DNA from: a virus
Taxonomy: Duplodnaviria; Heunggongvirae; Uroviricota; Caudoviricetes
IMG/VR virus record: IMGVR_UViG_3300025913_000020
Reading direction: 5' to 3' (one strand)
Length of the DNA stretch: 64,000 bases
The translations under genes were made by a program, and so were the position numbers. The notes under the pieces were generated by a model. The model was not told where the DNA came from. It was given only the letters and a program-made list of their open reading frames with translations, and did not search any database. Positions 1,143-35,670 of the stretch are shown here, in pieces (the stretch's first letter is position 1; the number at the start of each line of letters is the position of its first letter).

Positions 1143-1153
1143 GCTTTAATTAC

Positions 1154-2878: not shown

Positions 2879-2880
2879 AG

Positions 2881-3096: not shown

Positions 3097-3110
3097 GCTG
3101 TAAATACAGT

Positions 3111-4943: not shown

Positions 4944-5983
4944 TTGCGAATCATGAAGTGGAGTCGGTAATTGGCGCTGTCTGTCACACCGTTAAGTGAG
5001 GCAACGAATCCATCCGTGGTGGGCTGACCGACCCAGGTGGGCCAGAGGTTCAGGCTGTTGACATCCGGCATGGCGATGTTGCCTGTCACACAGGATGGAG
5101 TGAACGGTAGGTTGAGGCCACCAACGTAAACAAAATTGGTTCCGTTAGGGATGGCGATGTTCGTGCCGAAAGTGGTGCCCGCTGACAACAGGACCAGCGT
5201 GGACGCGACCGCGTTGGTACCGGCGATGGCGATTCCCAGGGCTTCGCGTGCGATGTTGGTTCCGTCGATGGCGATACTCAGCGCTTCCCGCGCCAGGTTG
5301 GTGCCCTGTATTGCAATGCTGAGAGCTTCGTTGGCGAGATTCGTCCCGGCCACCGCGATGATCGTGTTGCCGTTGACTCCTGAGATCGCGCTGTTAGCTG
5401 TAGCCTGGGCCGCAGCGGCGGCGTTTAAGGCATTGGTGCCAACGTTTGTTCCGATCTGAGCGAGAGCGTACGCGGCGTTAGCTCGATTGGTACCGGCGAC
5501 CGAGATCGTCATTACACCGTTCACGCCACTGATCGCGCTCTGAGCATCTGCTTCAGCCTGAGCAGCAGCGTTCAGTGCGTTGGTTCCAACGTTGGTGCCG
5601 ATGGCGGCGAGATTGTAAGCTCCCGTGGCGCTCTGGCCCAGGGCCTGCATCGCGAGATTGATGGCGTTGGTGCCAACGTTTGTGCCGATGCACGCGAGGC
5701 TGTAGGCGGCGTTCGCAAGCGCGAGCGCTTGCGGGCCAACGTCCGGTGCGGGCGGCGTTGGCGGATCAGGCTTGAACAGAATGAGATCAGACCAGGACCC
5801 GCTGCCCTGCGGGACTGTGCCGTAATTCTGAATTAAAACGATGAAATTGCCGTTGCCGTAGGATGCAACGTCACGAGGCGGCACGTACGTTCCGGCTGGC
5901 ATCCACGTGCCTGTGAAGTTCAGGTCCGTGGAGCTGACGTAGGTCGTGTTGCCGTTTAGGTTCGCGTACGCGTAGATCGCCAC
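4940..5983 (-). CDS. tail-fibre-like protein with tandem IGTNVGTNALNAA repeats
   Basis: 347 aa, GTG start; at least 6 imperfect tandem repeats (IGTNVGTNA / AGTNLANEALSIAI); first gene of minus operon, about 20 nt downstream of palindromic motif 6005-6016. Confidence 0.55.
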   Translation of the reverse strand: MAIYAYANLNGNTTYVSSTDLNFTGTWMPAGTYVPPRDVASYGNGNFIVLIQNYGTVPQGSGSWSDLILFKPDPPTPPAPDVGPQALALANAAYSLACIGTNVGTNAINLAMQALGQSATGAYNLAAIGTNVGTNALNAAAQAEADAQSAISGVNGVMTISVAGTNRANAAYALAQIGTNVGTNALNAAAAAQATANSAISGVNGNTIIAVAGTNLANEALSIAIQGTNLAREALSIAIDGTNIAREALGIAIAGTNAVASTLVLLSAGTTFGTNIAIPNGTNFVYVGGLNLPFTPSCVTGNIAMPDVNSLNLWPTWVGQPTTDGFVASLNGVTDSANYRLHFMIRK

Positions 5984-8771: not shown

Positions 8772-9166
8772 CCTGTGACCAATGCGGAAAAGAATTTGAC
8801 CCGGCCAAGCTCGATGAAGTGATGTTTCACGCCGGAGACCACACGCCCATCGTCGCGACCGGAATCGAAGGCCACCAGGTGGAGCAGCCGGACACCGACG
8901 ATCTGCTCAGTGTTCAGCATCTGTCCCGGTCTCATCGAACAACGATGACGCAGAACCAGCGTAAAGAACTGGTTCGCATTCTTTCGATGGCGTTCGAAAA
9001 AGACAAACCGTACCTGACTCTCGAACAGCTCGCGGGAATGAATGATCGACAGGTTGGTCTCGCGTGGCTGCGGATGTGCGACTATATCACTGAAGGCCAG
9101 TATCAGCGTGAGTTTGAAGCGTGCGTGGGTTTACCTGTTTTTCTAACCAGAGATCGACATGAGTGA
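8768..9166 (+). CDS. hypothetical zinc-binding protein
   Basis: start MTCDQCGKEF, ATGA overlap with 8771. Confidence 0.45.
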   Translation: MTCDQCGKEFDPAKLDEVMFHAGDHTPIVATGIEGHQVEQPDTDDLLSVQHLSRSHRTTMTQNQRKELVRILSMAFEKDKPYLTLEQLAGMNDRQVGLAWLRMCDYITEGQYQREFEACVGLPVFLTRDRHE

Positions 9167-9626
9167 CGTGAAAGTTTTTGGTGGTTCCGGTATCACCGTG
9201 GACCTGTACCAGTTCATCCGCGAGCTGCTGCCCCCAGGCAAAACCATCCTGGAACTCGGCAGCGGGGACGTGAGCACGCGCTACCTCAGCGAAGTTTACA
9301 AAGTATTCTCCGTGGAGGATAAGCCGGAGTGGCTGAACAAGCACAAGGCCACCTACATCCACGCGCCGCTCGTTAAGGGCTGGTACGACGTGGATGTGCT
9401 GAATGTGGCCATGCCCAAGGATTACGATCTCATCTTGGTGGACGGTCCGACCGGTGAGGGCAATCGGATCGGCTTCTTTCATCATCTGGAGATTTTCAAT
9501 ACCAAGGTCCCAATTATTTTCGACGACACGAACCGGACCGGCGAATGGTACCTGGCCCAGAGTGTGGCCGCCTTCCTGGGACGCCCGGCTGTATTTCATT
9601 CCACGTTTGCAATCTTAATGCCCTGA
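9159..9626 (+). CDS. class I SAM-dependent methyltransferase
   Basis: 155 aa; motif I ILELGSGDVSTRYL and post-I acidic DYDLILVDG. Confidence 0.6.
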   Translation: MSDVKVFGGSGITVDLYQFIRELLPPGKTILELGSGDVSTRYLSEVYKVFSVEDKPEWLNKHKATYIHAPLVKGWYDVDVLNVAMPKDYDLILVDGPTGEGNRIGFFHHLEIFNTKVPIIFDDTNRTGEWYLAQSVAAFLGRPAVFHSTFAILMP

Positions 9627-9646
9627 CCTATGCCCTGACCTATGCC
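9618..9646 (+). repeat. 2.4 x tandem 12-mer ATGCCCTGACCT spanning stop of 9159..9626 and start of 9642..9914
   Basis: each unit reads ATG-CCC-TGA (Met-Pro-stop); first unit ends the methyltransferase, third ATG starts next gene. Confidence 0.7.
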
Positions 9647-9914
9647 AAGAAAAACTAACCTACCAAAACGATCCACACATAGCCGCGTTGAAGAAGCCAG
9701 AGAACTTCTTTTAAGAGCACGGGCAGCCGTGCTCTTGTTAAACAGTGATGCTGTTCGTGACGCGCAGAACAAGCGCCGGTCTGCCATCTCCAGGACTCAC
9801 GCTGGCCGCCGATTCAGGATGACTGGCTCCATCTGCTCCACCATCGAATCGCTGCGCGAACTCCTCTGGGAGATGCCCGGTGTGGATTACAAGCAGACCT
9901 ACCGGAAGAAATGA
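9642..9914 (+). CDS. hypothetical basic protein (90 aa)
   Basis: complete ORF. Confidence 0.4.
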   Translation: MPRKTNLPKRSTHSRVEEARELLLRARAAVLLLNSDAVRDAQNKRRSAISRTHAGRRFRMTGSICSTIESLRELLWEMPGVDYKQTYRKK

Positions 9915-10054
9915 AACCGCCGAAGCCAAAGCATCATCCTTGGCGGGGTTGGGTGCCGATCACATCCGCCAGAAGACCTAACGAGAAAGACCACGCCAAG
10001 CATTTGGCGGAGGCGAAGGAGCGCGCCAAGAAGTTCAAGCGCACTAGGGCTTGA
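9911..10054 (+). CDS. small basic protein (47 aa)
   Basis: below track cutoff; MKPPKPKHHPWRGW...; ATGA overlap with 9914. Confidence 0.25.
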   Translation: MKPPKPKHHPWRGWVPITSARRPNEKDHAKHLAEAKERAKKFKRTRA

Positions 10055-10712
10055 TCCAATAGCACGCGCCCATATCGACCGTTACCTTGATGTCCGGCAT
10101 GTTGTCGCCGAAGTAATCGCGAATCGCGTCCTGCTCACCTTTCAGCACCCAGTCATCCGACAGCACCACGCCGCCGCTCACCACTTTCGGATACAGGTAT
10201 TTCATGCAGCACTCGACCGACTCGTACAGATCGCCGTCCAGGCGCAGCATGGCGATGGGTCCGATCTCAGTCTTGGGCAGCGTGTGCTGGAACCAGCCCT
10301 CATGAAAGTGAACCTTATCAATCGGCAGATTAAGATTCATCAGGTTTGACTTCACGCCGACGACTGAGCACGAGGAAATGCCACTGCTCTTGAGGCGTTC
10401 CTCCAGGGGCAGATTCACGTCCACCACGAACTTGCCGATTCCCGGCTGATCGAGGTCCTTTGGCCCGGCATAAGGGATGCCTTGGAAGGAGTCGAACAGG
10501 TGCAGGTCGCGCATGTCGCCCTGGTCGAGCATGGCCGTCATCATGGACGCTGCGCTGCCGCCGTAGGCCACGCCGCACTCAACGAAGGCACCCGGCACGC
10601 TCAACGCGTGTTTGGCGAGAATGTAGGTGTGCTGGATGCCCTGATATGTGGTGAGCGCGTACCCCACCAGGTGCTGTAAGGACCTGGTATTGCCGTAATT
10701 GAATTCAACCAT
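10044..10712 (-). CDS. TylF/MycF-family (macrocin-type) sugar O-methyltransferase
   Basis: 222 aa; FVECGVAYGGSAASM glycine motif and LRLDGDLYES acidic motif characteristic of TylF-type SAM methyltransferases. Confidence 0.7.
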   Translation of the reverse strand: MVEFNYGNTRSLQHLVGYALTTYQGIQHTYILAKHALSVPGAFVECGVAYGGSAASMMTAMLDQGDMRDLHLFDSFQGIPYAGPKDLDQPGIGKFVVDVNLPLEERLKSSGISSCSVVGVKSNLMNLNLPIDKVHFHEGWFQHTLPKTEIGPIAMLRLDGDLYESVECCMKYLYPKVVSGGVVLSDDWVLKGEQDAIRDYFGDNMPDIKVTVDMGACYWIKP

Positions 10713-10719
10713 GCCCTAT

Positions 10720-11328
10720 TTACGCGGGGACGAGCAGAGTGTCCCAGTGGCCCATGATGCCGAGGCCGACACTGGTCAGATCAAATTTGAGCGGTTTGAC
10801 TTTCAGTTTCGTCCAGAGCTTTTCGTAGTAGCTCTCGCCGTGCTCATCGAGCGTGTTGAAATCATGGAACTCCACCGTGATCTGGCCGAAGGTAATGTCC
10901 TCGGGCCAGTTCTCCAGGATCAGGAATTCAGCCAGCTCGCAATCGAGTTTGATCAGGTCCCAGTGCTTCACGCCGACCTTTTTGGAAAAGCTGGCGATGT
11001 TCATTGTGGGAACGTTTACAATTTTGGCGTCGTTCACCAGCCACGGCAGGTGGGTCAGGTAATTTCCTTCACCGGTTGAGAACATAGCGTAGTCGGCGGC
11101 TGCCCGGTCGTCGTGGACCATGGCCATCGAATGGAAAATCACTTCCGGTATGAATGGCTCGGTCACAGTCGGGTCCGGCTCGATGGCGTGAATGATAGCG
11201 TTTGGCCGAAGTTCCAGGAGAGCTTTGGTAAATCCAAAGTTGCGTGCGCCCACGTCGAGAACAAAGGGCCTTTCCGGCAGCAGGTCCATGCTGATCGTGT
11301 GCGAACTGACCGAGAGTAGCGCTTCCAT
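10720..11328 (-). CDS. FkbM-family methyltransferase
   Basis: 202 aa; VLDVGARNFGFT motif typical of FkbM methyltransferases. Confidence 0.6.
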   Translation of the reverse strand: MEALLSVSSHTISMDLLPERPFVLDVGARNFGFTKALLELRPNAIIHAIEPDPTVTEPFIPEVIFHSMAMVHDDRAAADYAMFSTGEGNYLTHLPWLVNDAKIVNVPTMNIASFSKKVGVKHWDLIKLDCELAEFLILENWPEDITFGQITVEFHDFNTLDEHGESYYEKLWTKLKVKPLKFDLTSVGLGIMGHWDTLLVPA

Positions 11329-11329
11329 A

Positions 11330-11674
11330 CTAAGACTTACTGTCGGCGTGCTCGGCGGTGCGCTGCTTGTCCGAGGCCAGCCACGCGGCTTTGGCGACCA
11401 CCCTGGTCACGCAGATGATGCTTTTAGTGAGCACACCGTTGTAGTTGGCCGGGTCCATGTGGGAATAGTTTTCTTCCCACCACAGCTCGAAATTGTAAAC
11501 GCTCTTGGTGTTGGCCAGCAGCCCGTCAGCCTGGTCGAGTCCGATCGTACGCCAGCCGCACTTTTTGCAGACCATCAGGTCGGTGGGAACTTCGAACGTG
11601 CGCCCCTTATATTCCTGGGTGACGTTCCCGTAGCTCTCCTCGAACTCCTCGTTGTCGCAGTGCAGGCAGATCAT
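11330..11674 (-). CDS. zinc-ribbon protein
   Basis: start MICLHCDNEEF...CKKCGW; ATGA overlap with 11671. Confidence 0.45.
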   Translation of the reverse strand: MICLHCDNEEFEESYGNVTQEYKGRTFEVPTDLMVCKKCGWRTIGLDQADGLLANTKSVYNFELWWEENYSHMDPANYNGVLTKSIICVTRVVAKAAWLASDKQRTAEHADSKS

Positions 11675-11868
11675 GGCTCGGTCTTGCTCCAACCCCAGTC
11701 CCAGTTGGTCACCAGGTAGTCGATGGCCGCCTTCTCGATCTGGGTTTCCACGTGATTTGCATCCGGGTGATAGAGTACGAAATGTTTGTTCTTGTAGCCG
11801 TTGGCTTCGAGCAGGTTCAGCGCGTCACTGTCGCATCTGAAGCCTTCTGGGTTTGGTCCTGTGGGCAT
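11671..11868 (-). CDS. hypothetical protein (65 aa)
   Basis: operon context. Confidence 0.4.
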   Translation of the reverse strand: MPTGPNPEGFRCDSDALNLLEANGYKNKHFVLYHPDANHVETQIEKAAIDYLVTNWDWGWSKTEP

Positions 11869-11871
11869 GGC

Positions 11872-12111
11872 TTAGATGGTTGCTTTTCGCTCGGCGACTT
11901 CGTTTTCCGATATAGCTGCTACGACGATTTTGTAGTGCTGCACGTCCCACGATTTGTCCTTCAGGATTCGTCTTTCGGCTTCGTTGGTGGCCCGGTCTAT
12001 CGCGCCCGCAAGGTCAGCCTGGTCGAAGATGACCTCGGGGTCGCCGTCGATAGTGTGCTGCTTCGACCGCACCCAACGAATAAAAACATGGAATCGGATT
12101 GCGGGCTGCAT
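11872..12111 (-). CDS. hypothetical protein (79 aa)
   Basis: operon context. Confidence 0.4.
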   Translation of the reverse strand: MQPAIRFHVFIRWVRSKQHTIDGDPEVIFDQADLAGAIDRATNEAERRILKDKSWDVQHYKIVVAAISENEVAERKATI

Positions 12112-12112
12112 G

Positions 12113-12763
12113 TCAGGACCTTTTGACCGTTTTGCGCACTTCCGGTTTGATCTTGCCGAGGCGCTTTTTCAGCTTCATTGCCGAGTCTTCCTCCACCATT
12201 GCTTCAGCGATCCGGCGCGCTTGATCTTCCGCACCCAGTTCCTTTGCCACGCGCAGAATGTCCGGCTGAAGCCGGGCGGCGATGCGCTGCATGTTGTCCT
12301 GGCTGTGCGCGATACTGTGGAGCAGGTCCAGGGAACGATAGGTAAACAGGCGCGCTTCGCGGGCGTAATCGAGACCACGTTGATTACACATCCAGTGGAC
12401 GACATCCAGGAAGTCGGAGTCGTTGGGCGCGTCCACGTCGAATGCCTTCATGTGCTTCACGGCCTGGTAGGCGTAAGCGTGCGCGAGGGAGCCGGTGCCA
12501 CGCAGCTCGATTTTTACCTTGCTGATGCCCGAAGCGGACTTGAAATACTTTTCGATCTGCTTGTCCGTGGCCGTGGCCTGAGCGGAGATTTCAAATCGTG
12601 ACGCAGTGAGATCGGTGTAGCGGGCATAATAGAGATGTTCCACATGGAACTTTATCTCGAAGGATTCCGTCCATCCTTTTGCGATGGCGCGTCTGCCTTG
12701 TTCGTTCAGCTTCGGCGAGAGATTGCAGATGATTTTAACCCAACGTTTTTTTGATTCGCTCAT
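12113..12763 (-). CDS. hypothetical protein (216 aa)
   Basis: start at MSESKKRW; helical composition. Confidence 0.45.
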   Translation of the reverse strand: MSESKKRWVKIICNLSPKLNEQGRRAIAKGWTESFEIKFHVEHLYYARYTDLTASRFEISAQATATDKQIEKYFKSASGISKVKIELRGTGSLAHAYAYQAVKHMKAFDVDAPNDSDFLDVVHWMCNQRGLDYAREARLFTYRSLDLLHSIAHSQDNMQRIAARLQPDILRVAKELGAEDQARRIAEAMVEEDSAMKLKKRLGKIKPEVRKTVKRS

Positions 12764-13229
12764 AGATTTTGGTGGTTGAGAGTCCCTGTACATTTTGCAA
12801 AAGCGCGATCTCGCATTTGGCGCGCCGGGCAGCTTGGACCTCTTTCTTGTCCAGCGTCTCCAGTGTATAATCTCCGCCCTTGAACCAAACGTCCGGCTTG
12901 AATTCGGTGATCCATTTGGTGATGCGTGACTCGTTAAAGATGAAAACCATGCTCACCATTTCCAGAGCGGCAACTACTGTGGCGCGCTGGATGTCCGGGT
13001 TGATAGGGCGGCCTGGACCCTTTAGGCGTTTTACCGACGTGTCACTATTCAGCAGTACGATCAGGTGTGAGCACTTCGAACGGGCGTGAGTCAGGTAGTG
13101 GATGTGACCGGCGTGAAGAATATCGAAGCATCCGTTTGTGACGCCGATCCTGCCAGACCGGTGCAGCTTTATCCATTCCTTGGCCTCTTTCAGGGTGCCG
13201 ATGATCTTGTGCGCGCCGTCGTAACTCAT
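12735..13229 (-). CDS. cytidylyltransferase-fold nucleotidyltransferase, RfaE/HldE domain-II-like (sugar-phosphate adenylyl/cytidylyltransferase)
   Basis: IGVTNGCFDILHAGHIHYL = (T/H)xGH nucleotidyltransferase motif as in HldE C-domain; LLNSDTSVKRLKGPGRPINP matches RfaE-II. Confidence 0.7.
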   Translation of the reverse strand: MSYDGAHKIIGTLKEAKEWIKLHRSGRIGVTNGCFDILHAGHIHYLTHARSKCSHLIVLLNSDTSVKRLKGPGRPINPDIQRATVVAALEMVSMVFIFNESRITKWITEFKPDVWFKGGDYTLETLDKKEVQAARRAKCEIALLQNVQGLSTTKIYERIKKTLG

Positions 13230-13235
13230 GACCAG

Positions 13236-13254
13236 ATTTTGTTTACAATTTCTG
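13236..13254 (-). promoter_or_regulatory. motif copy ATTTTGTTTACAATTTCTG 8 nt upstream of ATG 13229
   Basis: between stop of 13261..14061 and start of 12735..13229. Confidence 0.45.
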
Positions 13255-13260
13255 TTACCG

Positions 13261-14061
13261 TCAATCTTTTCCTTCGATGATGCGCTGAAGCTCCTGCTGG
13301 CCGCTGTGGGAATCCAAGCAGCCGTTGTAGTAAGGTCCGTTCACGAAACCGATTTCATCGTGCGTGATTCCCGCCTGCTCGGTGGTTGCTTCGTACCAGT
13401 TTCCCAGAAGTTCCTTGCGGTAGGTGACGCAAAGCCGGGCGACTGCTTCACGTGCTTTGTAAAGTTTGATGGCGAGCGGGCGGCGGGTGGCAGCGGCAGC
13501 GTTTTCCCATCCTTTGACGATCTCAGGTTTAACTTCAGACCACTGGGGCAGCGGCGCGCCGCTGATGGCTGACTTCCAGCCAGTGGTTTCACAGTAGGCT
13601 TCGTAGGCGAGTTGTCCGGGCGTTTTTTCCATAATTTTATCGGGTTGGGTTTTACTTTCTTCTTTTAATATCTTGCGGGCTTCGGTTTCCCCGGACGCTG
13701 TCAGTGCCACACGTTGAGGATTGCCGTTGATGAAATGCCGTGATACTTCGATAAGACCGCGTCGTCGTAGCGCCTTCAGGGTGTTCATCTGAGCCACGAA
13801 GGTAGGACTCTGGCCCTCGGCCTCATCTGGATGGACAAAGCATGGGTTGTTGTACTGCGTTTTTAGCCAGGAATGTTGCACCAGCACACCACCGCAAAGG
13901 TGCATTTTGATTAACGCGGCGTCCATCAGTTCAGAGGTAGCGTCCCCGAGCATGGTCGGCACCGTTTCCTTTTTCTTGAATGTTCTGGAGCTGCTTTGCA
14001 GGACTGCTTTTTTATCAGCTTCGAATTCGGCTTTTATTTTGGATTGGAAGTCAGTTTTCAT
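13261..14061 (-). CDS. hypothetical protein (266 aa)
   Basis: complete ORF; no motif recognised. Confidence 0.5.
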   Translation of the reverse strand: MKTDFQSKIKAEFEADKKAVLQSSSRTFKKKETVPTMLGDATSELMDAALIKMHLCGGVLVQHSWLKTQYNNPCFVHPDEAEGQSPTFVAQMNTLKALRRRGLIEVSRHFINGNPQRVALTASGETEARKILKEESKTQPDKIMEKTPGQLAYEAYCETTGWKSAISGAPLPQWSEVKPEIVKGWENAAAATRRPLAIKLYKAREAVARLCVTYRKELLGNWYEATTEQAGITHDEIGFVNGPYYNGCLDSHSGQQELQRIIEGKD

Positions 14062-14888
14062 TCACCTGAATGAGTGGTATTGACTGCGGTTAATCGTTTG
14101 GCTTCTTCGATGTAGCTTTCGTCGATGTCGAACCCGATCACCTGGGCGACACCGAGATTCTTTGCGCCGATGGCGGTGTTGCCGATCCCCATGAATGGAT
14201 CAAGCACGGTGATGAACTCTGGTTCGAAAGTGCCGCCCACAGTGAGCCGGATGGCGTATTCTGCCAGTTTGGCAGGAAAAGTGGCAGGATGCGGTCGCTG
14301 AGCATTCCGGCTCTGGATCGTCTCGTAGGGGATGAACCAGACGTTGCCCCGGCAGCGCTTATCCTTGCCGCTCGTATGGCCCCACCGCTTCACGTTGCTC
14401 TTGTCCGCGTAAGGAACACCGAGAGCCAGGCGGTCGATGGGCGTGCTTCCTTCCAGCGTCAGATGGAACACGAACTCGTGGTAGTCGTTCAGAAAGCGAT
14501 TGGAGTTAATGGGCTTGAAGTGGCCCTTCGAAAGGACTGACCCGTCGTCCTGGTCAAGACTGATGCTCTTAATCCAGTGAATTGTGTTTTGCAGGACGAA
14601 CAGCTCGGCAGCCACCAGAAGCGCCTTGTGCGGCAGGAGCGGCATTCGCGGGCAACCTCCCAGGTTCAGGAACAGCGATCCGTTGGGCTTCAGCACCCGT
14701 TTGACTTCGGTCAGCCATTTCTTCGTGAAATCGAGATAAACTGCCTCTTTCTGATGATCGTTGTACTTGTGATATTTGATGCCCAGGTTGTAGGGTGGCG
14801 AGGTCACGCACACGTCCACCGAGGCCGGAGCGATGCGCTGCGCCATGCCCTGGATGCAGTCTTCAGCAAAGAGTAAAACTTCAGTCAT
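14058..14888 (-). CDS. DNA methyltransferase, beta-class N4-cytosine/N6-adenine type
   Basis: DVCVTSPPYNLG (motif IV SPPY) near N-terminus and VLDPFMGIGNTAIGA (motif I) near C-terminus, the order typical of beta-class amino-MTases. Confidence 0.75.
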   Translation of the reverse strand: MTEVLLFAEDCIQGMAQRIAPASVDVCVTSPPYNLGIKYHKYNDHQKEAVYLDFTKKWLTEVKRVLKPNGSLFLNLGGCPRMPLLPHKALLVAAELFVLQNTIHWIKSISLDQDDGSVLSKGHFKPINSNRFLNDYHEFVFHLTLEGSTPIDRLALGVPYADKSNVKRWGHTSGKDKRCRGNVWFIPYETIQSRNAQRPHPATFPAKLAEYAIRLTVGGTFEPEFITVLDPFMGIGNTAIGAKNLGVAQVIGFDIDESYIEEAKRLTAVNTTHSGE

Positions 14889-14893
14889 CGGGA

Positions 14894-15418
14894 ATGAGAA
14901 CAGATTTTGTTCTGAGCTTCATGGACCTCAACGAAGAATTAGGCACCATCGAAGAAGACCCTTTGGAAGGGCCGACCAAGATCAAACACTATCCGTGCCT
15001 GATCCCTGATCCAGAGCATCCTGCGCTGGCCGTTGACTCGCGCACGATCCGTGTCTGGTGCGAGCTGGATGAAGATTTCTACGCCGTCCTGCTTTCACCG
15101 ATCACGCATCTGGTCCATGAAGTCGCGGCGTCGCTTGATGGTTATGACATCGACGGCTTCCTCGACAGCTACAGTCACTACTATCACCCAGAGTGGCGCG
15201 CCACGCGGGCGATGCAGATGGGCCTGGCCTACCGTCAGCCGTTTTACGTTGAGCTATATGCGCGTCACTACGTGTCGCACACGCCGGATGGCACTGAATA
15301 CGATTGTGACACCAGCTACGAAATCCTTCACGTCAAGGCCCTTCCTCCGAATGAGGTTGCGGCGCGCTGGCAAGAGTGGCTAAGCCGTGGTGGTGATTTT
15401 GGTTCTGTTGAGAAATGA
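14894..15418 (+). CDS. hypothetical protein (174 aa)
   Basis: start at internal MRTDFVLSF; only 5 nt from divergent start 14888. Confidence 0.45.
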   Translation: MRTDFVLSFMDLNEELGTIEEDPLEGPTKIKHYPCLIPDPEHPALAVDSRTIRVWCELDEDFYAVLLSPITHLVHEVAASLDGYDIDGFLDSYSHYYHPEWRATRAMQMGLAYRQPFYVELYARHYVSHTPDGTEYDCDTSYEILHVKALPPNEVAARWQEWLSRGGDFGSVEK

Positions 15419-15834
15419 GCACTTTAGGCCCAGGCTTTTTTCCGTTTGGCCCCTGTATCAATGGTGAGTTTCCCTCCATTCCTGATGCGAACGATTCGTG
15501 GGCATTGGTGGAACTTTACCGATGGCAGTACGGCGTGCTGCCGGGCGACCGAAACGATAAGCCAGAAGGCCGACCATTGGACATTCCTGAAGCGATGGAG
15601 AAAATGGCAAAGGCACTGACTGCGAAAGATGGTGAGGAGATGCCTACCCCGATGAATGTCGCGTCTGTGCTGATGTTTGCCGCAAAACTGGTCAAGCAGC
15701 AGAAGGAAACGTACGATCGCGCCATCGACGCCGCCATATTCGCTGCCAAGGATGCTCTGGCTGATCCGCCCACTCACCAGCAGGATCAGTTGTTAGATAG
15801 CATTCTTGAACGATTACAGGACTTGAAAAAGTAA
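15415..15834 (+). CDS. hypothetical protein (139 aa)
   Basis: ATGA overlap. Confidence 0.45.
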   Translation: MSTLGPGFFPFGPCINGEFPSIPDANDSWALVELYRWQYGVLPGDRNDKPEGRPLDIPEAMEKMAKALTAKDGEEMPTPMNVASVLMFAAKLVKQQKETYDRAIDAAIFAAKDALADPPTHQQDQLLDSILERLQDLKK

Positions 15835-15840
15835 AGCGCT

Positions 15841-16119
15841 ATGGCCTCAATGGGTGAATACATCACAGCGGCCAAGACGCCGGAAAAGAAAGCCCGGCTG
15901 AAGGCCCAGTGGTATCAGGCGGTTCACGATCACGTGATCACTTGCTGCTGCGGTCAGTTGCGCGCCCTGGAGCTGGCCTACCGCTGCCTCTATTGCGGTG
16001 AATGGTATTGTTACAACTGCGCCCAGGTGCATTTCGGCATGACCGTAGCCGACTGGCGCGCCCAAAAGAATGAAGACCACGATGACCACCGAGGAGGCAA
16101 AAAGGGACCTTGTAGTTGA
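15841..16119 (+). CDS. Cys-rich zinc-binding protein
   Basis: CCCGQ...CLYCGEWYCYNC cluster. Confidence 0.45.
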   Translation: MASMGEYITAAKTPEKKARLKAQWYQAVHDHVITCCCGQLRALELAYRCLYCGEWYCYNCAQVHFGMTVADWRAQKNEDHDDHRGGKKGPCS

Positions 16120-16300
16120 GCGGGAGATTCTGCGCCAGCTTGGGAAACTCAACCGATCCGATCCTGCCGTTTATACCCGCGTCACTTTCCAACTGGCTCG
16201 GATTCAGGAACTCGAACAGTTCGTCATCACGACGGCGATTGAGGAGGAGTCTCGCCATCGGACGGCGAAGCTACTTCGTCCTCTCCCAGGTCAACCGTGA
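16070..16300 (+). CDS. hypothetical protein
   Basis: overlaps neighbours; weak. Confidence 0.3.
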   Translation: MKTTMTTEEAKRDLVVEREILRQLGKLNRSDPAVYTRVTFQLARIQELEQFVITTAIEEESRHRTAKLLRPLPGQP

Positions 16301-16481
16301 CTGCTGACCCTGGCGGTATCGCACCGTTCGCGTAATCCTGAATGTGGCGGCGTGCCATGTCCTGCACGATGTCCTGGCAAAAGCGGGCATTACCATTCTT
16401 GTCGATGCCGCACTCACAAATCTCACCAGGGCCGGTGATGATGTGGATGCCGCCGTCTTTTACGATGACTGTCGGACTCAT
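16227..16481 (-). CDS. hypothetical protein (84 aa)
   Basis: CECG motif; weak. Confidence 0.35.
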   Translation of the reverse strand: MSPTVIVKDGGIHIITGPGEICECGIDKNGNARFCQDIVQDMARRHIQDYANGAIPPGSAVTVDLGEDEVASPSDGETPPQSPS

Positions 16482-16484
16482 GTT

Positions 16485-16766
16485 TTAACTACTTGCTCCA
16501 GGGCGCAGTTCTCTGCCGTCCCAGTTTTCCAGCTTCAGCCAGACGTGCCAGCCGCACCCGATCTTAGCGTCTGCCGGGCTGGCGTCCAGAAAGGACTCAG
16601 TCACCAAGCCATCCGGGTGAATGTAGTGGTTCGAGATGTCGCAGTACCTGCCGCAGACGCAGCGGATCAATGGTCGGAGCGGGCGCTGATCCTTGGAGTC
16701 AACGATGGGCATCCAGCACGGGATTTGATCCTTTTCGGAGTCGTACTTTGGAATGACGGTCAGCAT
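16485..16766 (-). CDS. hypothetical protein (93 aa)
   Basis: operon context. Confidence 0.4.
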   Translation of the reverse strand: MLTVIPKYDSEKDQIPCWMPIVDSKDQRPLRPLIRCVCGRYCDISNHYIHPDGLVTESFLDASPADAKIGCGWHVWLKLENWDGRELRPGASS

Positions 16767-17038
16767 TGAATGATTTCTCCGTTGAGGATTCTAAAGTGGT
16801 AGGGGCACCGATCCGGTACCGGCGTTTTATCGTTCCAGCAGTGAAGGACGCTCGGCTCCATCGTGAGCGTGTTGAAGTCCTCGGAAGTGATCTTCCACCG
16901 ACCGGGAGGAGCCTGTCCGTAAGTGACGGTGACTGGCGCGCCGACGTGGTGCTTTCCGCAGGTCGGGCAGCGCAGGATCAGCATCATGCCTTTTTCGTCA
17001 TGATGGACAAAGCCAGGATCGAGATCAACAAGGCGCAT
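16760..17038 (-). CDS. zinc-ribbon protein (CPTCGKHH...CPYH)
   Basis: 92 aa. Confidence 0.45.
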   Translation of the reverse strand: MRLVDLDPGFVHHDEKGMMLILRCPTCGKHHVGAPVTVTYGQAPPGRWKITSEDFNTLTMEPSVLHCWNDKTPVPDRCPYHFRILNGEIIQC

Positions 17039-17328
17039 TATTCCAGTCCGACAGTGAACTCGACGCTGTAGTTGCGGCGTTCAATGTCCTGTTCTGTGTG
17101 CGGTTTCAACTCACCGTCCTTTTTCTCGATGGTCACACGGGCCGCGCCATCGCCATCCACGAAAATTCCAGCCTGGCCACTGTGGCCGGAGCGCGTGCTG
17201 TTGATCCAGGAGAACAGTTCCTCGATTTTGTCCAGGTGCTCGGGCCGGGCACTAATGGTGTACGTGCGCGTTTCCTTCTGGGATTTGTCCTCTCCGATGA
17301 TCGCTTCAATGATTGGGCTTGCACTCAT
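17038..17328 (-). CDS. hypothetical protein (96 aa)
   Basis: operon context. Confidence 0.45.
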   Translation of the reverse strand: MSASPIIEAIIGEDKSQKETRTYTISARPEHLDKIEELFSWINSTRSGHSGQAGIFVDGDGAARVTIEKKDGELKPHTEQDIERRNYSVEFTVGLE

Positions 17329-17336
17329 TTGTTTGG

Positions 17337-18728
17337 TCAGTGGTAAATCTTTCCGTCATCACCCAGGTAAAGGTGGAATTCGCCGAAAGCTTTTGAGGAG
17401 CGCGTCAGCCGGTCGGCCTGCGGTTTGGGCCAGTCACCGTCCCAGAATCCAGCGCCATGGCCGTTGCGTGTGAGCCAGAAGTCGTGACCGCCCTGCTCTG
17501 TACCGCCAACCGATAAATCTTCTGCGTTCTGCGCTTCGAAATTCTGGCAGTCTTCCTCCATCTCAAGCACGGTGCCTTCATCAAGCTCTGGTTCCTCCAC
17601 GTCCAGGGCTTTGCCTTCGGCGTGCAGCTTCTCCAGGTCTTCCTTCAACTGCTCCTCATCGGTGAAATACGCCGCCTCGATGTAAGCGTTGAGAAATTTG
17701 GATCGTTCAGGCGGGCGGGTTATTTCTTTCCAATCGTCTTCGTCCTCGCGGATTCCTTTTCCGCGTGCTGCCGCGTGGAACCGATTCCAGGTGGAGAAAT
17801 GATTCTTCGGCCAATTTCCTTTGGCCTCCAACCAGCGCGCCATCTCAACTTCGCTGCCTTTGAACTCGTCCAGAGTCATGGTGTCGAAGTACACTTTAGC
17901 CGCCCAAAGGTTATCACTTTCTTTGGTGACGTAGGTCTTCATCCAATCGTTAATCTGATACGTCCACGTGAATTGACCGTGCTGCGTAAATCCAGCGTTG
18001 GAAAGAAGTCCCTGTAAATCAGGCGTGATGTCTTTCCAGTCGTCGTCATCGGCAAAAGCTTCCTCTACCCAGTTGATTTTGTATTTGGCGTAGATGGACT
18101 TTAGGCGAGAAATGACTTCATCGGTTTTGAGTCCTATTTCTTTGATCTGCTGACCTTGCCGATTGGTGAGCCAACCGAGGATGTCCCAGGTGTCATCGTA
18201 GCGGTGCCAGATCACGAGAGAGCTGATTCCGGGTAATCCGTTTCTCATCCAGATCGCTTCGGTTTCCCGGCGAAAACGTAACTTCTCCAGGCGATCTTCC
18301 AGCGGCAGCGCGGTGACATCCTTCCAGTCTTCGTCCGCTAAAGCTTCCTGCACCGGCCAGTCTTTGATGTCCACGGCACGCACTTTGCGCTTCGAGAGGA
18401 AAGCCGCCATGGCCCGGTGATGGCCATCCAGGATATTGGGACCGTCGATGAGAATCGGGCCTTCTGGATTCTTACGGTAGGCTTTGACGAGCGACTTGTG
18501 GACCGGCATCTCCGCCACGTGGGTCAACTCTCTGAGTGGGTTACCGTTGGCAAGAAGCTTATCTGGATCGACTTCTTTGATCGGCAGCGGCACGTCCAGC
18601 TCGTGGTGGCCGAACATGTCCCAGACCCACTGTTCTGGACTGTGATCAGCAAATAAATCACCCAAGGTGATGGTCTGTCCTTGCTCAGTTTCAAGGACAT
18701 ACTTGATAATTTGCTGCGCGCTCGTCAC
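17337..18728 (-). CDS. ParB/sulfiredoxin-like nuclease-domain protein with three acidic DWKD(I/V)T repeats
   Basis: 463 aa; ILIDGPNILDGHHRAMAA carries the DGHHR ParB-nuclease signature; repeats ADEDWKDVT, DDDDWKDIT, EDEDDWKEIT. Confidence 0.6.
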   Translation of the reverse strand: MTSAQQIIKYVLETEQGQTITLGDLFADHSPEQWVWDMFGHHELDVPLPIKEVDPDKLLANGNPLRELTHVAEMPVHKSLVKAYRKNPEGPILIDGPNILDGHHRAMAAFLSKRKVRAVDIKDWPVQEALADEDWKDVTALPLEDRLEKLRFRRETEAIWMRNGLPGISSLVIWHRYDDTWDILGWLTNRQGQQIKEIGLKTDEVISRLKSIYAKYKINWVEEAFADDDDWKDITPDLQGLLSNAGFTQHGQFTWTYQINDWMKTYVTKESDNLWAAKVYFDTMTLDEFKGSEVEMARWLEAKGNWPKNHFSTWNRFHAAARGKGIREDEDDWKEITRPPERSKFLNAYIEAAYFTDEEQLKEDLEKLHAEGKALDVEEPELDEGTVLEMEEDCQNFEAQNAEDLSVGGTEQGGHDFWLTRNGHGAGFWDGDWPKPQADRLTRSSKAFGEFHLYLGDDGKIYH

Positions 18729-18732
18729 GCCC

Positions 18733-18881
18733 TAACTACTGTGCTGAAGGAAGACCTGTTTTACACACCAAACCTTGCGTTTGGCGATGTCTTCCGGGTA
18801 ACCCGCCTTTCGGAGGGATAGGTAGAAAAACTTCAATTCCCGCTCCTGTTCCGGCGTTAGTTGACGTGCTTTCCGCTTCAT
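18733..18881 (-). CDS. small basic protein (49 aa)
   Basis: MKRKARQLTPEQERELKFFYLSLRKAGYPEDIAKRKVW...; below track cutoff. Confidence 0.3.
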
Positions 18882-18920
18882 CAGCAGTCGGCTGCCCGAC
18901 TACTAATAAATACGATTCCC

Positions 18921-18939
18921 GCAAAAGTTTACGCGTTAC
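18921..18939 (-). promoter_or_regulatory. degenerate motif copy CGCAAAAGTTTACGCGTTA
   Basis: intergenic between 18929..19540 and small gene 18881. Confidence 0.25.
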
Positions 18940-19540
18940 AGTAAAATCCCCAAGGAGCCGAGGAGTGTTCTATGTTTGGCTCCCAACGATTTTTCAAGGT
19001 GACGCATTCCCACTGCGCAGCCGGTTTTCCAGCGCTATCGGTGAGCCAGCGCACGGACTGGATGCGAATAATCCGATCAGCACGCATGAAGATCGTCGGG
19101 CTGCCGCCGTAAAGGTGAGCCAACATGACGTTCTTGATGTCCTTGGTCTCCTGGTAAATGGCCACGACACTGGCACCAACTTTGAGCAGGCTTGCGCAAT
19201 CGGCTGCGGGGTTGGTTAAGGTTTCGCAGTGGTCGATAATCATGGTCTGGTGAGGGCGAGAGCGCGCTGACCAGTCACCGTGTTCGCCTTCGAAATCAAC
19301 AGAAATTGTCGTCTTGGCGTTGAAAAGCCTTTTGGCCAGCAGGGTTTTTCCGGTCTTGGGTTTTCCGATCAAGACGGTGAGTGTTGGCTTTACCTGCGGC
19401 TCGGTCCAGAACTGGTCCAGACGAAAGTCTTCGGCGACAGCGACGACTGGCTTTGGTTCACTCAGCGCCTTGACGATGAGTGGGGCAGCGAACGGAGTCC
19501 AAGCCAGCAGCTTAAGAAGGGATCGGCGGTTGATTTTCAT
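18929..19540 (-). CDS. P-loop NTPase (kinase/sulfotransferase-like) co-transcribed with fcl/gmd
   Basis: start [12 protein letters not shown] (ATGA overlap with 19537); Walker A VLIGKPKTGKTLLAKRL. Confidence 0.5.
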   Translation of the reverse strand: MKINRRSLLKLLAWTPFAAPLIVKALSEPKPVVAVAEDFRLDQFWTEPQVKPTLTVLIGKPKTGKTLLAKRLFNAKTTISVDFEGEHGDWSARSRPHQTMIIDHCETLTNPAADCASLLKVGASVVAIYQETKDIKNVMLAHLYGGSPTIFMRADRIIRIQSVRWLTDSAGKPAAQWECVTLKNRWEPNIEHSSAPWGFYCNA

Positions 19541-20475
19541 TTGGTGGTTGCGTGGTTTTTCAGGAAGTCGGCATAGGCAATCTTCAGGCCCGCTTCCAGG
19601 GTTACGGACGGCTTCCATCCTAGCGCCATGACCTTGGAGCTGTCCACAAATTTGATCGGGGTGCCGACGACGCCCTTCGGGTCGAACACCAGTTGGTCGC
19701 GCCCGAGGCCCACGGTGTCAGCTACCAGCTCCGCCAGTTCTCGGATCGAAATGTCCGTGCCGTAGCCGATATTGATCGGGGCTTCGTCGTTGTAATTTTC
19801 CATCACCGTGACGCAGGCGGCAGCCAGGTCGTCGGAGTACAGGAACTCCCGGCGCGCCGTGCCGTCGCCCCAGACGTGGACGTGCTCCTGGCCGCTGACC
19901 TTTGCCTGGTAGAACTTGCGGATCAGGTCCGGGATGACGTGGCAGCCGGGCTTGTAGGTGTCATTGATACCGTACAGGTTCGTCGGCATGACGCTGATGA
20001 AGTTGTCACCAGACTGTTTACGGTACGCCTGGCACAGTTTCAGGCCGGTGATCTTGGCCAAGGCGTAAAATTCATTGCTCGGTTCCAGCGGTCCGGTCAT
20101 CAGGTATTCTTCCTTGATCGGCTGCGGACAGAGCTTCGGGTAGATGCACGAGCTGCCGAAGAACATGAGCTTTTTAACGCCCGTGACGTGCGCTGTTTCG
20201 ATGACGTTGAGCTGGATTTCCAGATTGGTGACCAGCATCGACACCGGTTGCTTCATGTTGCCTTCGATCCCGGCGACTTTAGCTGCCGCCAGGAAGACGT
20301 ATTCCGGTTCATGCTTCAGAAAGAATTTCACCGTCTGACCGATGTCGGTCAAATCGAGTTCGCTCCGGGGTGCGGAGAGAAGATTAGTGAAACCTTGGGC
20401 AGTGAGCTGGCGCATCAACGCAGAGCCGACGAGGCCCTTGTGACCGCACACGAGGATTTTGGAGTTCTTGTTCAT
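19537..20475 (-). CDS. fcl: GDP-L-fucose synthase (GDP-4-keto-6-deoxymannose 3,5-epimerase/4-reductase)
   Basis: 312 aa; [15 protein letters not shown] Rossmann motif, [18 protein letters not shown] catalytic YxxxK; immediately downstream of gmd. Confidence 0.85.
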
Positions 20476-21485
20476 TTTGGGTTTTTGCGTACGTCTTCGA
20501 TGTCGGCCTGCACCATTTTGCAGACCAGGGATTTGAAATCGACTTCGGGCTTCCAGCCCAATTCCTGTGCTGCTTTCCGGGCGTCACCGCACAGGTAGGG
20601 GACCTCGGACGGACGCATGTATTTCTCGTCCGTCTCAATAAACATGTGATGATCCAGTCCGGCAAACTTAAACGCGTTGAAGGCGAAGTTCTTCACGCTG
20701 TGGGCCTCCCCGGTCGCGATGACGTAATCGTTCGGTTTGTCCATTTGCAGCATCATCCACATGGCGCGCACGTAGTCCTCGGCGTCGCCCCAGTCGCGCT
20801 TCGCATCCAGGTTCCCGAGCGCCACTTTCTCTTGCAGTCCGGCTTTGATCCTGGCCACGGCACGGGTGATCTTGCGCGTGACGAAGGTTTCTCCCCGGCG
20901 CGGGCTTTCGTGGTTGAACAGGATGCCGCAGCTAATATGCAGTCCATGTGCCTCTCGGGCATTGACGCACATGTTGTGCGCAAAAACTTTGGCTGCCGCG
21001 TAGGGTGAGCGCGGGTGGAATCGGGTGGTTTCATTCTGAACCAGTTTCCCGTCAACAGTTGACATCGAGGTCCCGTACATTTCCGAGGAGGACGCCTGGT
21101 AGAAGCGCGCCTTCGGGCAGACGAGGCGGAAGGACTCCAGCAGATTCAGCGTGCCGATCCCAGTCACCTGAGCCGTGTAAACGGGCTGCTCGAAGCTGAC
21201 TTTTACGTGGGATTGTGCGGCCAGGTTGTAAATCTCGTCCGGCTGGACCTTCGCCAGAATGTGGTGCAGCGAAACGGAATCCATCATGTCGCCGTGGTGC
21301 AGGTGCAGCTTGTCGAAGATGTGGTCGATCCGGCTGGTGTTGAAGGTCGAACTGCGCCGCATAATACCGTGGACCTCGTAACCCTTCCTCAATAAAAGCT
21401 CTGCCAGGTAGGAGCCGTCCTGGCCGGTAATGCCTGTGATCAAAGCCTTTTTGGTTGGTTGCTCGGATGTGGATTCGGTCGTCAT
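20472..21485 (-). CDS. gmd: GDP-mannose 4,6-dehydratase
   Basis: 337 aa; [49 protein letters not shown] (YxxxK) are canonical GMD motifs. Confidence 0.9.
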
Positions 21486-24080: not shown

Positions 24081-24349
24081 TCGAAAATATCTTTCGGTAA
24101 AAATCCCGCCTTACCGAGACCGCGTGGTTCCACCAGGATGCCGATGATGCGATGTTTCTTTCCACAACCTCCACAGATGAATGTGAAGGTATCGGTTACG
24201 TCCGTGTGGACCGTGTATTCGGTCCCTATCGGGATACTGTCATCAAGAACGGAAAAGCCGCAGGGGCAGATGCTGAGCTTCTTTAGTTTGACTTTGGTGA
24301 TGGTTTCAAAGGCCATAAAGAATCTCAGTCCTTCAGCGGTTGCGCTCAT
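24071..24349 (-). CDS. zinc-binding hypothetical protein
   Basis: CPCG...CGGCGKKH. Confidence 0.4.
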   Translation of the reverse strand: MSATAEGLRFFMAFETITKVKLKKLSICPCGFSVLDDSIPIGTEYTVHTDVTDTFTFICGGCGKKHRIIGILVEPRGLGKAGFLPKDIFECP

Positions 24350-24690
24350 GGGGTTTGAGCTTCGACCGGCACGGATACTGATGACTTACCGGTGGAAATC
24401 GTATCGGTGTAGGAAGCTTTGCTATTCCGCCCGTCCACAATGTAAACGTAGTGCCCGTTGTCAGAGAACCGGTAAACCTTCATTCCACTGATGGTGAACA
24501 AGAACTGCACGTCATAGTTGCTCGCAGGCATCGAGACCTGGGTGGCGACGGGCGGGGTCACTTTGACCGGCACGCCCTGGTGAGTTTTCTTTAGGAAACC
24601 AGCGGCCATCGCGGCCAGGATGGCTATGATAGCGATCAGGACCAGGACCTCAACCAGCGTCAGCCCTTGGGTTCTTTTGTAGTGAGCCAT
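24346..24690 (-). CDS. prepilin-type N-terminal cleavage/methylation domain protein (type IV pilin/pseudopilin-like)
   Basis: start MAHYKRTQG-LTLVEVLVLIAIIAILAAMAAGF: G-x-T-L-x-E prepilin peptidase site followed by hydrophobic helix; track ORF N-terminal extension rejected. Confidence 0.55.
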   Translation of the reverse strand: MAHYKRTQGLTLVEVLVLIAIIAILAAMAAGFLKKTHQGVPVKVTPPVATQVSMPASNYDVQFLFTISGMKVYRFSDNGHYVYIVDGRNSKASYTDTISTGKSSVSVPVEAQTP

Positions 24691-35626: not shown

Positions 35627-35670
35627 ATTGGATTCTTCTGTTTTTGGTTTGGTGGTCCTTCGTCGTGCTG

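Follow-up and report, generated by a model that had tools for sequence, protein, structure and literature searches.

A lineage-conserved gene set predicted to make and O-methylate fucose in a jumbo-phage-sized genome

Described systems that make and methylate 6-deoxyhexoses

The logic of combining fucose synthesis with sugar methylation in a virus is already known from the cyanophage S-SCSM1 and the giant virus PBCV-1, which are the closest points of reference for the locus described here. This locus lies in a stretch of 64,000 nucleotides of tailed-phage DNA (IMG/VR record IMGVR_UViG_3300025913_000020, Caudoviricetes), hereafter the window, and comprises genes for GDP-mannose 4,6-dehydratase (GMD, gene gmd), GDP-L-fucose synthase (Fcl, gene fcl), a sugar-phosphate nucleotidyltransferase and three methyltransferases. 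We interpret it, at a rough probability of 0.4, as an accessory module for glycan tailoring, conserved within a jumbo-phage lineage, with the virion as the slightly favored acceptor; its core chemistry (fucose synthesis and O-methylation on a glycan) appears likely from the homologies described below.

S-SCSM1 (MK867354.2) combines GMD, Fcl, methyltransferases and fucosyltransferases in a “cell wall” cluster (ORF113-135), and its GMD is 56% identical to that of the window. It differs from the window in having at least eight glycosyltransferases (GTs) or fucosyltransferases (POFUT-like, alpha-1,2-FucT, NodZ and GTs) as well as a GDP-mannose 3,5-epimerase. None of its methyltransferases and GTs resembles any open reading frame (ORF) of the window, its host is a cyanobacterium, and the function of its cluster is a predicted one. 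PBCV-1 resembles what is proposed for the window in deriving GDP-fucose from host GDP-mannose (A118R as GMD, A295L as GMER) and in the O-methylation of a terminal 6-deoxyhexose by two class-I S-adenosylmethionine (SAM) methyltransferases (A064R-D3 and A061L). It differs in being a giant virus of eukaryotes whose known GT domains include a fucosyltransferase (machinery lists name A111/114R), in having a proven acceptor, the major capsid protein, and in its genes, which are scattered and not arranged in operons. Mycobacteriophages of clusters O and F share with the window the combination of a phage O-methyltransferase and sugar enzymes near structural genes; an O-methyltransferase with tandem GTs is reported to be directed there at the capsid and tail tube (Freeman et al., 2023, as cited in PMC11600133). 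The cluster O phages differ in having three GTs and no nucleotide-sugar synthesis, and no relationship could be detected between their O-methyltransferase and the TylF-like enzyme of the window.

Among bacterial systems, the glycopeptidolipid cluster of Mycobacterium avium (AF143772) encodes a GMD-type dehydratase (mdhtA) and a TylF-family methyltransferase (mtfC) that are 59% and 34% identical, respectively, to the window proteins, and its product carries O-methylated 6-deoxyhexoses, as we propose for the window; it differs as a non-viral lipid-glycan pathway to which GTs, a peptide synthetase and lipid carriers also belong. The glycopeptidolipid analogy drawn in an initial annotation of this DNA is apt: mtfC, which is not a phage gene, is the sole TylF match in a phage collection of ~50,000 records. 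That collection includes the M. avium chromosomal record (AF143772.2), which is also its top GMD match. The deoxysugar O-methyltransferases of macrolide and aminocoumarin pathways, namely TylF, MycF and NovP, which belong to the sequence family of the TylF-like enzyme, and MycE and SpnK, which are fold neighbors of the small methyltransferase encoded at 9159..9626 (hereafter the 9159 protein), work one after another on a 6-deoxyhexose that has already been attached. The window enzymes surely do not have macrolides as acceptors, and the 9159 protein, a core of only 155 aa, lacks the oligomerization domain of MycE and SpnK. Finally, domain II of HldE and its counterpart HldC (D-glycero-beta-D-manno-heptose 1-phosphate adenylyltransferase) provide the best hidden Markov model (HMM) and PDB match of the nucleotidyltransferase, and stand-alone copies occur in 52 phage records, mostly of cyanomyoviruses. 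These systems differ in that the window has no GmhA, GmhB or kinase, and the window protein scores under the equivalog cut-off.

The phage collection likewise has 237 records with relatives of the GMD, most of them from cyanomyoviruses. Relative to the described systems, two kinds of methyltransferase are new, the TylF type and the FkbM type, neither of which has a counterpart among the isolated phages in these records. The small GT-associated type of methyltransferase and the lack of a GT nearby are also new, as is the setting, probably a verrucomicrobial jumbo phage.

Gene content of the locus and its conservation

The first three genes, gmd, fcl and a gene termed X (unit A; Table 1), form an operon in which, on sequence evidence, gmd and fcl should be a translationally coupled pair making GDP-L-fucose. 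GMD scores 469.2 bits against TIGR01472 (cut-off 415; residues 12-331 of 337 covered) and 433 bits against PF16363; its top PDB matches are all GMDs (up to 384 bits), the alignment with solved GMDs runs end to end, and the catalytic Ser-x-Glu (SSE) and YxxxK (YAAAK) are retained in segments that align with Arabidopsis MUR1. For Fcl, the best family is NF047922 (388 bits, under the cut-off of 500; runner-up family 68 bits), and GDP-L-fucose synthases fill the first 18 places among its PDB matches (best 292 and 275 bits). Its GSSCIYP, YALAK (YxxxK) and CHVIP segments are retained when it is aligned with 7ll6 and 1bsv; we take them to be the equivalents of E. coli Ser107/Cys109, Tyr136/Lys140 and His179, i.e., the triad and the Cys/His pair of 3,5-epimerization. 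The comparison favors GDP-L-fucose as the predicted product over GDP-D-rhamnose, 6-deoxytalose or colitose, and both enzyme assignments of the initial annotation are borne out by these matches and residues.

Gene X starts at M27 of a longer ORF, an independent 203-aa gene call (P0391) being identical, and therefore both junctions of unit A, gmd/fcl and fcl/X, are ATGA overlaps. The earlier placement of a P-loop protein in this operon is thus supported by its coupling to fcl; no tie of this protein to sugar chemistry was found, and its matches are generic P-loop/Walker-A ones only. Gene X has two database homologs and none in IMG/VR; the RR pair, the Walker A motif and a C-terminal W..C..LK.R pattern are invariant (four homologs), and the signal pattern RRxFLK...AxA is invariant alongside the invariant Walker A in the window and two relatives (L021:11925-12548 and L023:12357-12965). 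A twin-arginine-type signal and a Walker A motif in one protein are an odd pairing.

Unit B consists of nine genes that occupy positions 14888 to 10044 and are spaced at -29 to +31 nt, in the order N6/N4 DNA methylase, 266-aa ORF, nucleotidyltransferase, 12113-family protein, two tiny ORFs, zinc ribbon, FkbM-like and TylF-like methyltransferase. Transcription units were defined by gene spacing only, because scans for sigma-70 promoters and terminators did no better than on shuffled sequence. All genes named by the initial annotation are on the minus strand, with the exception of 9159-9626 (plus), and lie at the coordinates given there.

The TylF-like enzyme scores 118.9 bits against PF05711 (cut-off 23), and NovP (88 bits) and MycF (66 bits), its solved relatives with functional names, are all deoxysugar O-methyltransferases. 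The metal-binding and catalytic Asp residues (the DxD..DD pattern of TylF, MycF and NovP) are kept, with LRLDGDLYES and VLSDDW aligning with LRMDGDLYES and VIVDDY of NovP, and the N-terminal lid is ~40-65 residues shorter (query residue 38 corresponds to NovP residue 105; the first 89 of 264 profile positions have no match). The FkbM-like enzyme scores 38.5 bits against PF05050 (cut-off 22.7) and 36.6 bits against TIGR01444 (cut-off 37.7); it has no solved-structure relative and no relative among the phage-collection records. NoeI, the 2-O-methyltransferase of Nod-factor fucose, belongs to the FkbM family. The family assignment made earlier for the TylF-like enzyme is in line with its score; that of the FkbM-like enzyme agrees with the Pfam score and falls just short of the TIGR01444 cut-off.

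The 9159 protein, encoded at the end of a plus-strand block that converges on the TylF-like gene, has no HMM match in Pfam, NCBIfam or PHROGs and no PDB sequence match. Its family counts 1011 representative homologs at E<=0.001, with invariant E32, G34, G36, E53, D95 and D123 and a glycine-rich motif ILELGSG. An hhalign comparison of the family with the TylF clade was negative; its placement required a fold search. An AlphaFold model built with the family alignment (predicted local distance difference test score, pLDDT, 95.4) gave 101 PDB matches in Foldseek at E<=0.001, and all 50 of those listed are class-I methyltransferases, COMT, SpnK, MycE, MycF and fibrillarin among them. By this model the protein has a class-I SAM-dependent methyltransferase fold, in agreement with the “further SAM methyltransferase” proposed for this gene at the outset. 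The same domain occurs elsewhere in proteins that join it to GT2, Glyco_trans_1_2 and TPR modules, and the fusions to GT modules place it in glycan biosynthesis. Overall, for two of the three methyltransferases, family membership or structural similarity points to enzymes that add O-methyl groups to 6-deoxyhexoses once these have been transferred (TylF/NovP/MycF and the MycE/SpnK-like fold).

The earlier assignment of the nucleotidyltransferase as RfaE/HldE-II-like is upheld by TIGR02199 (154.2 bits, under the equivalog-domain cut-off of 181.5 and still the best family), PF01467 (72.6 bits) and the best PDB match, Burkholderia HldC 5x9q (74.7 bits). None of its ADP-heptose pathway partners (GmhA, HldE kinase, GmhB, HldD) is encoded in the window. 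For the 12113 family, no PDB profile match was obtained, and a single-sequence AlphaFold model reached a pLDDT of 39.8.

Table 1. Features of the window discussed in the text, with units A and B first.
Feature	Position	Strand	Evidence or remark
gmd, GDP-mannose 4,6-dehydratase	20472..21485	-	First gene of the three-gene operon (unit A); TIGR01472, PF16363
fcl, GDP-L-fucose synthase (3,5-epimerase/4-reductase)	19537..20475	-	Unit A; NF047922, PDB matches
Gene X, 203-aa P-loop protein	18929..19540	-	Unit A; twin-arginine-type N-terminus and Walker A GKPKTGKT
N6/N4 DNA methyltransferase (SPPY motif)	14058..14888	-	PF01555, 131.6 bits; heads unit B
266-aa ORF	13261..14061	-	Unit B; winged-helix-like by eye
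HldC/RfaE-domain-II-type sugar-phosphate nucleotidyltransferase	12735..13229	-	Unit B; TIGR02199, PF01467, phrog_7878
12113-family protein with basic C-terminal tail	12113..12763	-	Unit B; conserved homologs
Zinc-ribbon protein, DUF7479-like	11330..11692	-	Unit B; PF24292, 23 bits (cut-off 27); phrog_19114
FkbM-family methyltransferase	10720..11328	-	Unit B; PF05050, TIGR01444
TylF/NovP/MycF-family metal-dependent sugar O-methyltransferase	10044..10712	-	Last gene of unit B; PF05711
Small 155-aa class-I SAM methyltransferase-fold protein	9159..9626	+	AlphaFold/Foldseek; convergent with the TylF-like gene
Large terminase subunit (TerL)	46461-48221	-	phrog_2666; tailed-phage marker
Pectate-lyase-type tailspike	3111-4943	-	PHROG match; tailed-phage marker
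BNR/sialidase-like protein	1154-2878	-	Sec/lipoprotein-type hydrophobic N-terminus
Acyl carrier protein (ACP)	30764-31018	-	TIGR00517, 94.7 bits (cut-off 70.45); DSL motif, DLGADSLD

Homology searches with the TylF-like protein and GMD identified six related contigs, which were compared over neighborhoods of 12-21 kb. Two of them, L022 and L023, are syntenic with the 10-28 kb part of the window; their gmd and fcl are 77-78% and 72-74% identical to those of the window (the gmd range being 75-78% when L021 is included), and they keep, in window order, the small ORFs, the DNA methylase (70%; 64-71% at equivalent positions in L020, L022 and L023), the nucleotidyltransferase (54%; 53-55% over the two contigs), the 12113 homolog and the zinc ribbon (48%, in an equivalent position). 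L023 ends within the start of a TylF-like gene that is 80% identical, and identities of the TylF-like protein range from 55 to 80% in L020, L023, L025 and L026. Its FkbM-like neighbor also adjoins it in L025 (72% identity), with a 104-aa ORF in its place in L023. In L020 a 9159-type domain lies directly upstream of the TylF-like gene on the same strand. The more distant L026 (TylF 55%, core protein 66%) carries gmd-fcl ~8 kb from the TylF-like gene, with a 12113 homolog between them; homologs of the 12113 family adjoin the nucleotidyltransferase or the TylF-like gene in L020, L022, L023 and L026. Gene X follows fcl in L021 and L023 and is replaced by an HNH-like ORF in L022; L021, which keeps the gmd-fcl-X arrangement, encodes a 1552-aa fiber-like protein 3.5 kb downstream.

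The same genes in the same order in related phages argue that the clustering is not due to chance, and gmd-fcl lies within ~10 kb of the TylF-like gene in three lineages, the window and two divergent relatives. A substitution within unit B is found in L022 and L023, where a 305-aa sugar epimerase/dehydratase of SDR (short-chain dehydrogenase/reductase) type lies between the DNA methylase and the nucleotidyltransferase (L022:16987-17904 and L023:16782-17699); its counterpart in the window is the unrelated 266-aa ORF. This SDR scores best as dTDP-glucose 4,6-dehydratase, GalE or heptose epimerase, with HldD lower than dTDP-glucose dehydratase and GalE. Judged from these gene comparisons, the module is real and conserved but modular, its gmd-fcl, nucleotidyltransferase (with or without SDR) and methyltransferase parts having been gained, lost and shuffled.

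As a separate observation, L026 (ENA ERZ25039540, 96 kb) encodes a tubulin-family protein (L026:7190-8317, minus strand) between gmd-fcl and the TylF-like gene; the window has no tubulin homolog.

Proposed mechanism, acceptor and competing explanations

In the proposed mechanism, Gmd and Fcl, whose genes overlap on a single message, would convert host GDP-mannose to GDP-L-fucose, a step suggested by equivalog-level homology and conserved catalytic residues. The HldC-type nucleotidyltransferase may activate another sugar- or polyol-phosphate and, taken with the SDR found in sister phages, would imply a second activated sugar or polyol. By analogy with their families, up to three SAM methyltransferases (TylF-type, FkbM-type and the small MycE/SpnK/COMT-like protein), acting stepwise, could then O-methylate a 6-deoxyhexose already placed on its acceptor, as in mycinose, tri-O-methylrhamnose, glycopeptidolipids and chlorovirus capsid glycans; with three such enzymes encoded beside a fucose pathway, the product suggested is a fucose cap bearing one to three O-methyl groups. 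The transferase itself would lie outside the window, being encoded elsewhere in a genome of at least 245 kb or supplied by the host, or else would have an unrecognized fold. The acceptor might be a virion surface protein (fiber, spike or capsid), which would give the particle a methylated, hydrophobic glycan coat.

A virion target is a tentative assignment. It is favored by the location of the module between the packaging/structural block (that of TerL) and the spike/fiber-like genes (219-5983), all on the same strand, by a contig (L001) with gmd-fcl beside collagen-repeat and tailspike-like genes, and by the fiber-type neighbors of both the L021 gmd operon and a cluster of GT and TylF-like genes in another contig, L017. 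Moreover, the experimentally resolved precedents, PBCV-1 and the cluster O mycobacteriophages, are virion glycans. Virus-encoded sugar pathways are common in metagenomes and almost never have a target assigned, and this phage lineage offers a compact, conserved test case; should its product be attached to the virion, jumbo phages would join chloroviruses and mycobacteriophages among the viruses shielded by glycans.

Several observations weigh against this interpretation. No GT family was matched by Pfam or PHROGs in essentially all window ORFs of at least 200 aa, none appears in precomputed Pfam tables of the L020-L026 neighborhoods, and phmmer searches of window ORFs of at least 80 aa returned nothing at E<=10 with 14 phage GT-related proteins as queries (five GTs and one unassigned neighbor from L017, and eight GT/fucosyltransferase proteins from S-SCSM1), so that the statement in the initial annotation that no GT could be recognized still holds. 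The result is not mere insensitivity, because S-SCSM1 has at least eight GTs or fucosyltransferases beside its gmd-fcl and the GTs of L017, an IMG/VR contig in which a TylF-clade gene (50% identical) lies among five GTs (three GT2, one GT15-like and one GT25), are readily detected by Pfam. As no sugar-attaching enzyme was found, any target named for the glycan is tentative. Gene arrangement provides further counterpoints: units A and B are ~4 kb apart, with a 463-aa protein, small ORFs and the plus-strand block between them; L020 has the TylF-like gene with no gmd within 10 kb, and L021 has gmd without the TylF-like gene, the two units thus being either more than 10 kb apart or separate; and L017-L019 combine TylF-like genes with GTs and no gmd-fcl, from which it follows that the TylF-like enzyme is not bound to fucose as such. 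Scores below curated cut-offs for Fcl, RfaE-II and TIGR01444 leave these sequence-based assignments correspondingly qualified, the FkbM family also methylates non-sugar hydroxyls, and the predicted Tat-type signal of gene X, together with the exported proteins of the window, would point to the envelope and not to a cytoplasmic virion.

Three ORFs initially put forward as GT candidates fared no better, since HMM annotation gave no GT signal for any of them. The 266-aa ORF (13261-14061), with zero Pfam, NCBIfam or PHROG matches, takes the position of the SDR of relatives; the 12113-12763 protein was dropped because its family also occurs without sugar genes nearby (L124); and 39254-41125 has no Pfam or PHROG match and is conserved outside sugar arrays (in L020 and weakly in L026, beside a conserved neighbor, 38488-39273, ~18 kb from the sugar genes).

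A separate observation concerns L017:8429-15161, where the cluster of GTs and the TylF-like gene abuts proteins with Fn3_assoc/CHB_HEX_C and Gly_rich_2 domains and looks like a complete phage glycosylation cassette.

Remodeling of the host envelope is, in our estimate, somewhat unlikely, though almost as probable as a virion acceptor, and stands first among the alternatives. GDP-fucose, the second sugar and methylation would here be directed to lipopolysaccharide, capsule or extracellular polysaccharide by host or distantly encoded phage transferases, so that a polysaccharide receptor is masked, superinfection is blocked and progeny do not stick to debris. The lack of a phage GT nearby is consistent with use of host GTs, and gene X has a conserved N-terminus of the twin-arginine export type. 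That a surface glycan of the host matters to the phage is indicated by exported proteins with carbohydrate-active folds (pectate-lyase-like and BNR/sialidase-like) and the polysaccharide-type tailspike; a weak EamA-type membrane protein is encoded near the TylF-like gene in L020, and the authors of the S-SCSM1 study interpret their equivalent cluster as cell-wall modification. Set against this, the module includes no flippase, polymerase, ligase, Gtr-type gene or membrane protein, no integrase or lysogeny marker was found among the scanned window ORFs, and the module sits among structural genes. To our knowledge, there is also no experimental proof of a phage nucleotide-sugar pathway remodeling the host surface, which we count against this alternative; if the host surface is indeed altered, this would be a rare phage with its own nucleotide-sugar supply for that purpose.

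It is less probable, and in our view unlikely, that the genes form no single pathway and are independent accessory functions gathered in one variable region, where gmd-fcl boosts or diverts a host pool and the methyltransferases have unconnected targets, such as proteins, RNA or small molecules. Such independence would fit the separability of the two units in L020 and L021, the DNA methylase at the head of unit B and its small proteins of DNA or RNA type, the many substrate classes of FkbM and small class-I methyltransferases, and the occurrence of the 12113 family without sugar genes. It is opposed by the proximity of gmd-fcl and the TylF-like gene (within 10 kb) in three lineages, the recurrence of TylF-like, FkbM-like and 9159-type proteins as neighbors, the fusion of the 9159 domain to GTs elsewhere, and the uniform deoxysugar O-methyltransferase function of NovP and MycF.

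We regard as quite improbable a variant of the glycan-tailoring interpretation in which poly-O-methylated fucose is transferred without any canonical GT by a member of an unrecognized family, i.e., the 12113-type protein or the Tat-signal P-loop protein coupled to fcl. If the latter were the transferase, a periplasmic nucleotide-binding step in phage-directed modification of the envelope or virion would be implied.

Of the three targets suggested initially (virion, host lipopolysaccharide or extracellular polysaccharide, and DNA), DNA is the least likely. Hypermodification, in which a nucleotide-sugar donor serves to glycosylate a modified phage base and the methyltransferases cap the sugar, would be in keeping with the DNA methylase at the start of unit B and the methylase, SDR epimerase and nucleotidyltransferase series of the relatives; known phage DNA-glycan clusters pair GTs and epimerases beside methyltransferases and ParB-like genes, and arabinosyl-cytosine phages encode a sugar nucleotidyltransferase/kinase. 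We nevertheless consider it very improbable, as the window methylase is of the N6/N4 amino type (PF01555) and not C5, no TET/5mYOX, ThyA-like hydroxymethylase or GT is found in the window by Pfam, and neither of the papers drawn on for those clusters and phages mentions fucose or a GDP-linked donor for glycosylating DNA. Equally remote is metabolic sabotage, in which Gmd-Fcl would drain GDP-mannose and leave a mannose-containing envelope polymer of the host unfinished: it requires no transferase and has a parallel in phages that target the GDP-mannose supply (reportedly Adephagia gp48), but it leaves the three methyltransferases, the nucleotidyltransferase and the conserved coupling of Fcl unexplained, since a dehydratase alone would drain the pool.

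Genome setting, host and other genes

TerL and the tailspike, both matched by PHROGs, bear out the initial attribution of this DNA to a phage. Nearly all genes of the window are on the minus strand, its G+C content is ~55%, no transfer RNA genes were found in it, and most of the remaining window proteins have no match in Pfam or PHROGs; a 992-aa protein carries a CBM5/12 module. Proteins identical to the window GMD and to gene X (as P0391) are encoded on a contig of 245,196 bp, because of which we regard the window as a slice of a jumbo-phage-sized genome; by this identity, the source genome is jumbo-phage-sized, at least 245 kb. Window positions 8929-20775 recur at 100% identity in an 87-kb Logan contig (SRR6056503_223340) that reaches ~66 kb past the start of the window, and a scan of one metagenome gave a 3.7-kb contig (91% identical) as the sole match. 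A megablast search with 13 kb against isolated phages found no DNA-level relative, a TerL search of IMG/VR found zero relatives, and IMG/VR contigs with GMD or TylF-like genes have no other genes in common with the window.

The best available clue to the host phylum is provided by the relatives of the ACP: 78 of the 80 best loci are in metagenome-assembled genomes of soil Verrucomicrobiota (Chthoniobacterales, Candidatus Udaeobacter), at 54-64% identity. Judging from these relatives, the host is probably a member of the soil Verrucomicrobiota, a group for which we know of few or no cultured phages. The ACP gene itself is genuine by its TIGR00517 score and DSL motif; its inclusion in the sugar set by the initial annotation has no genomic link in its favor and was rejected, as the gene is part of a variable insert (~4.5 kb, 28.2-32.9 kb) that the syntenic L022 and L023 lack, and no partner (acyl-transfer) enzyme was recognized nearby.

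Other genes were recorded as side observations. Six proteins, all encoded on the minus strand, have Sec/lipoprotein-type N-termini (219-1142, 1154-2878, 3111-4943, 32899-33918, 35983-36339 and 50318-50614); two of them share the segment SAQVPPYQH/SQVPPFQH after the hydrophobic stretch, and the 1552-aa fiber-like protein of L021 contains three domains like that of the 219-1142 protein. An SPFH/Band-7 membrane protein (PF01145, phrog_200) is encoded at 34469-35674 (minus), and the start of its gene is overlapped by a gene for a small protein with two transmembrane segments (35671-35895, minus). A 463-aa protein directly downstream of the gmd operon (17337-18728, minus) has a C-terminal phrog_1915 domain and no Pfam match, its DGHHR motif looking ParB-nuclease-like by eye only. 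Between the sugar units, at 16760-17038 (minus), lies the gene for a small DUF6527 protein (PF20137, “BubE” in precomputed tables) that is kept in L022, L023, L024 and L026. Lastly, a protein with a prepilin-type N-terminal methylation motif (PF07963) and DUF4884 (24346-24897, minus), pseudopilin-like in appearance, is kept in L021-L023.

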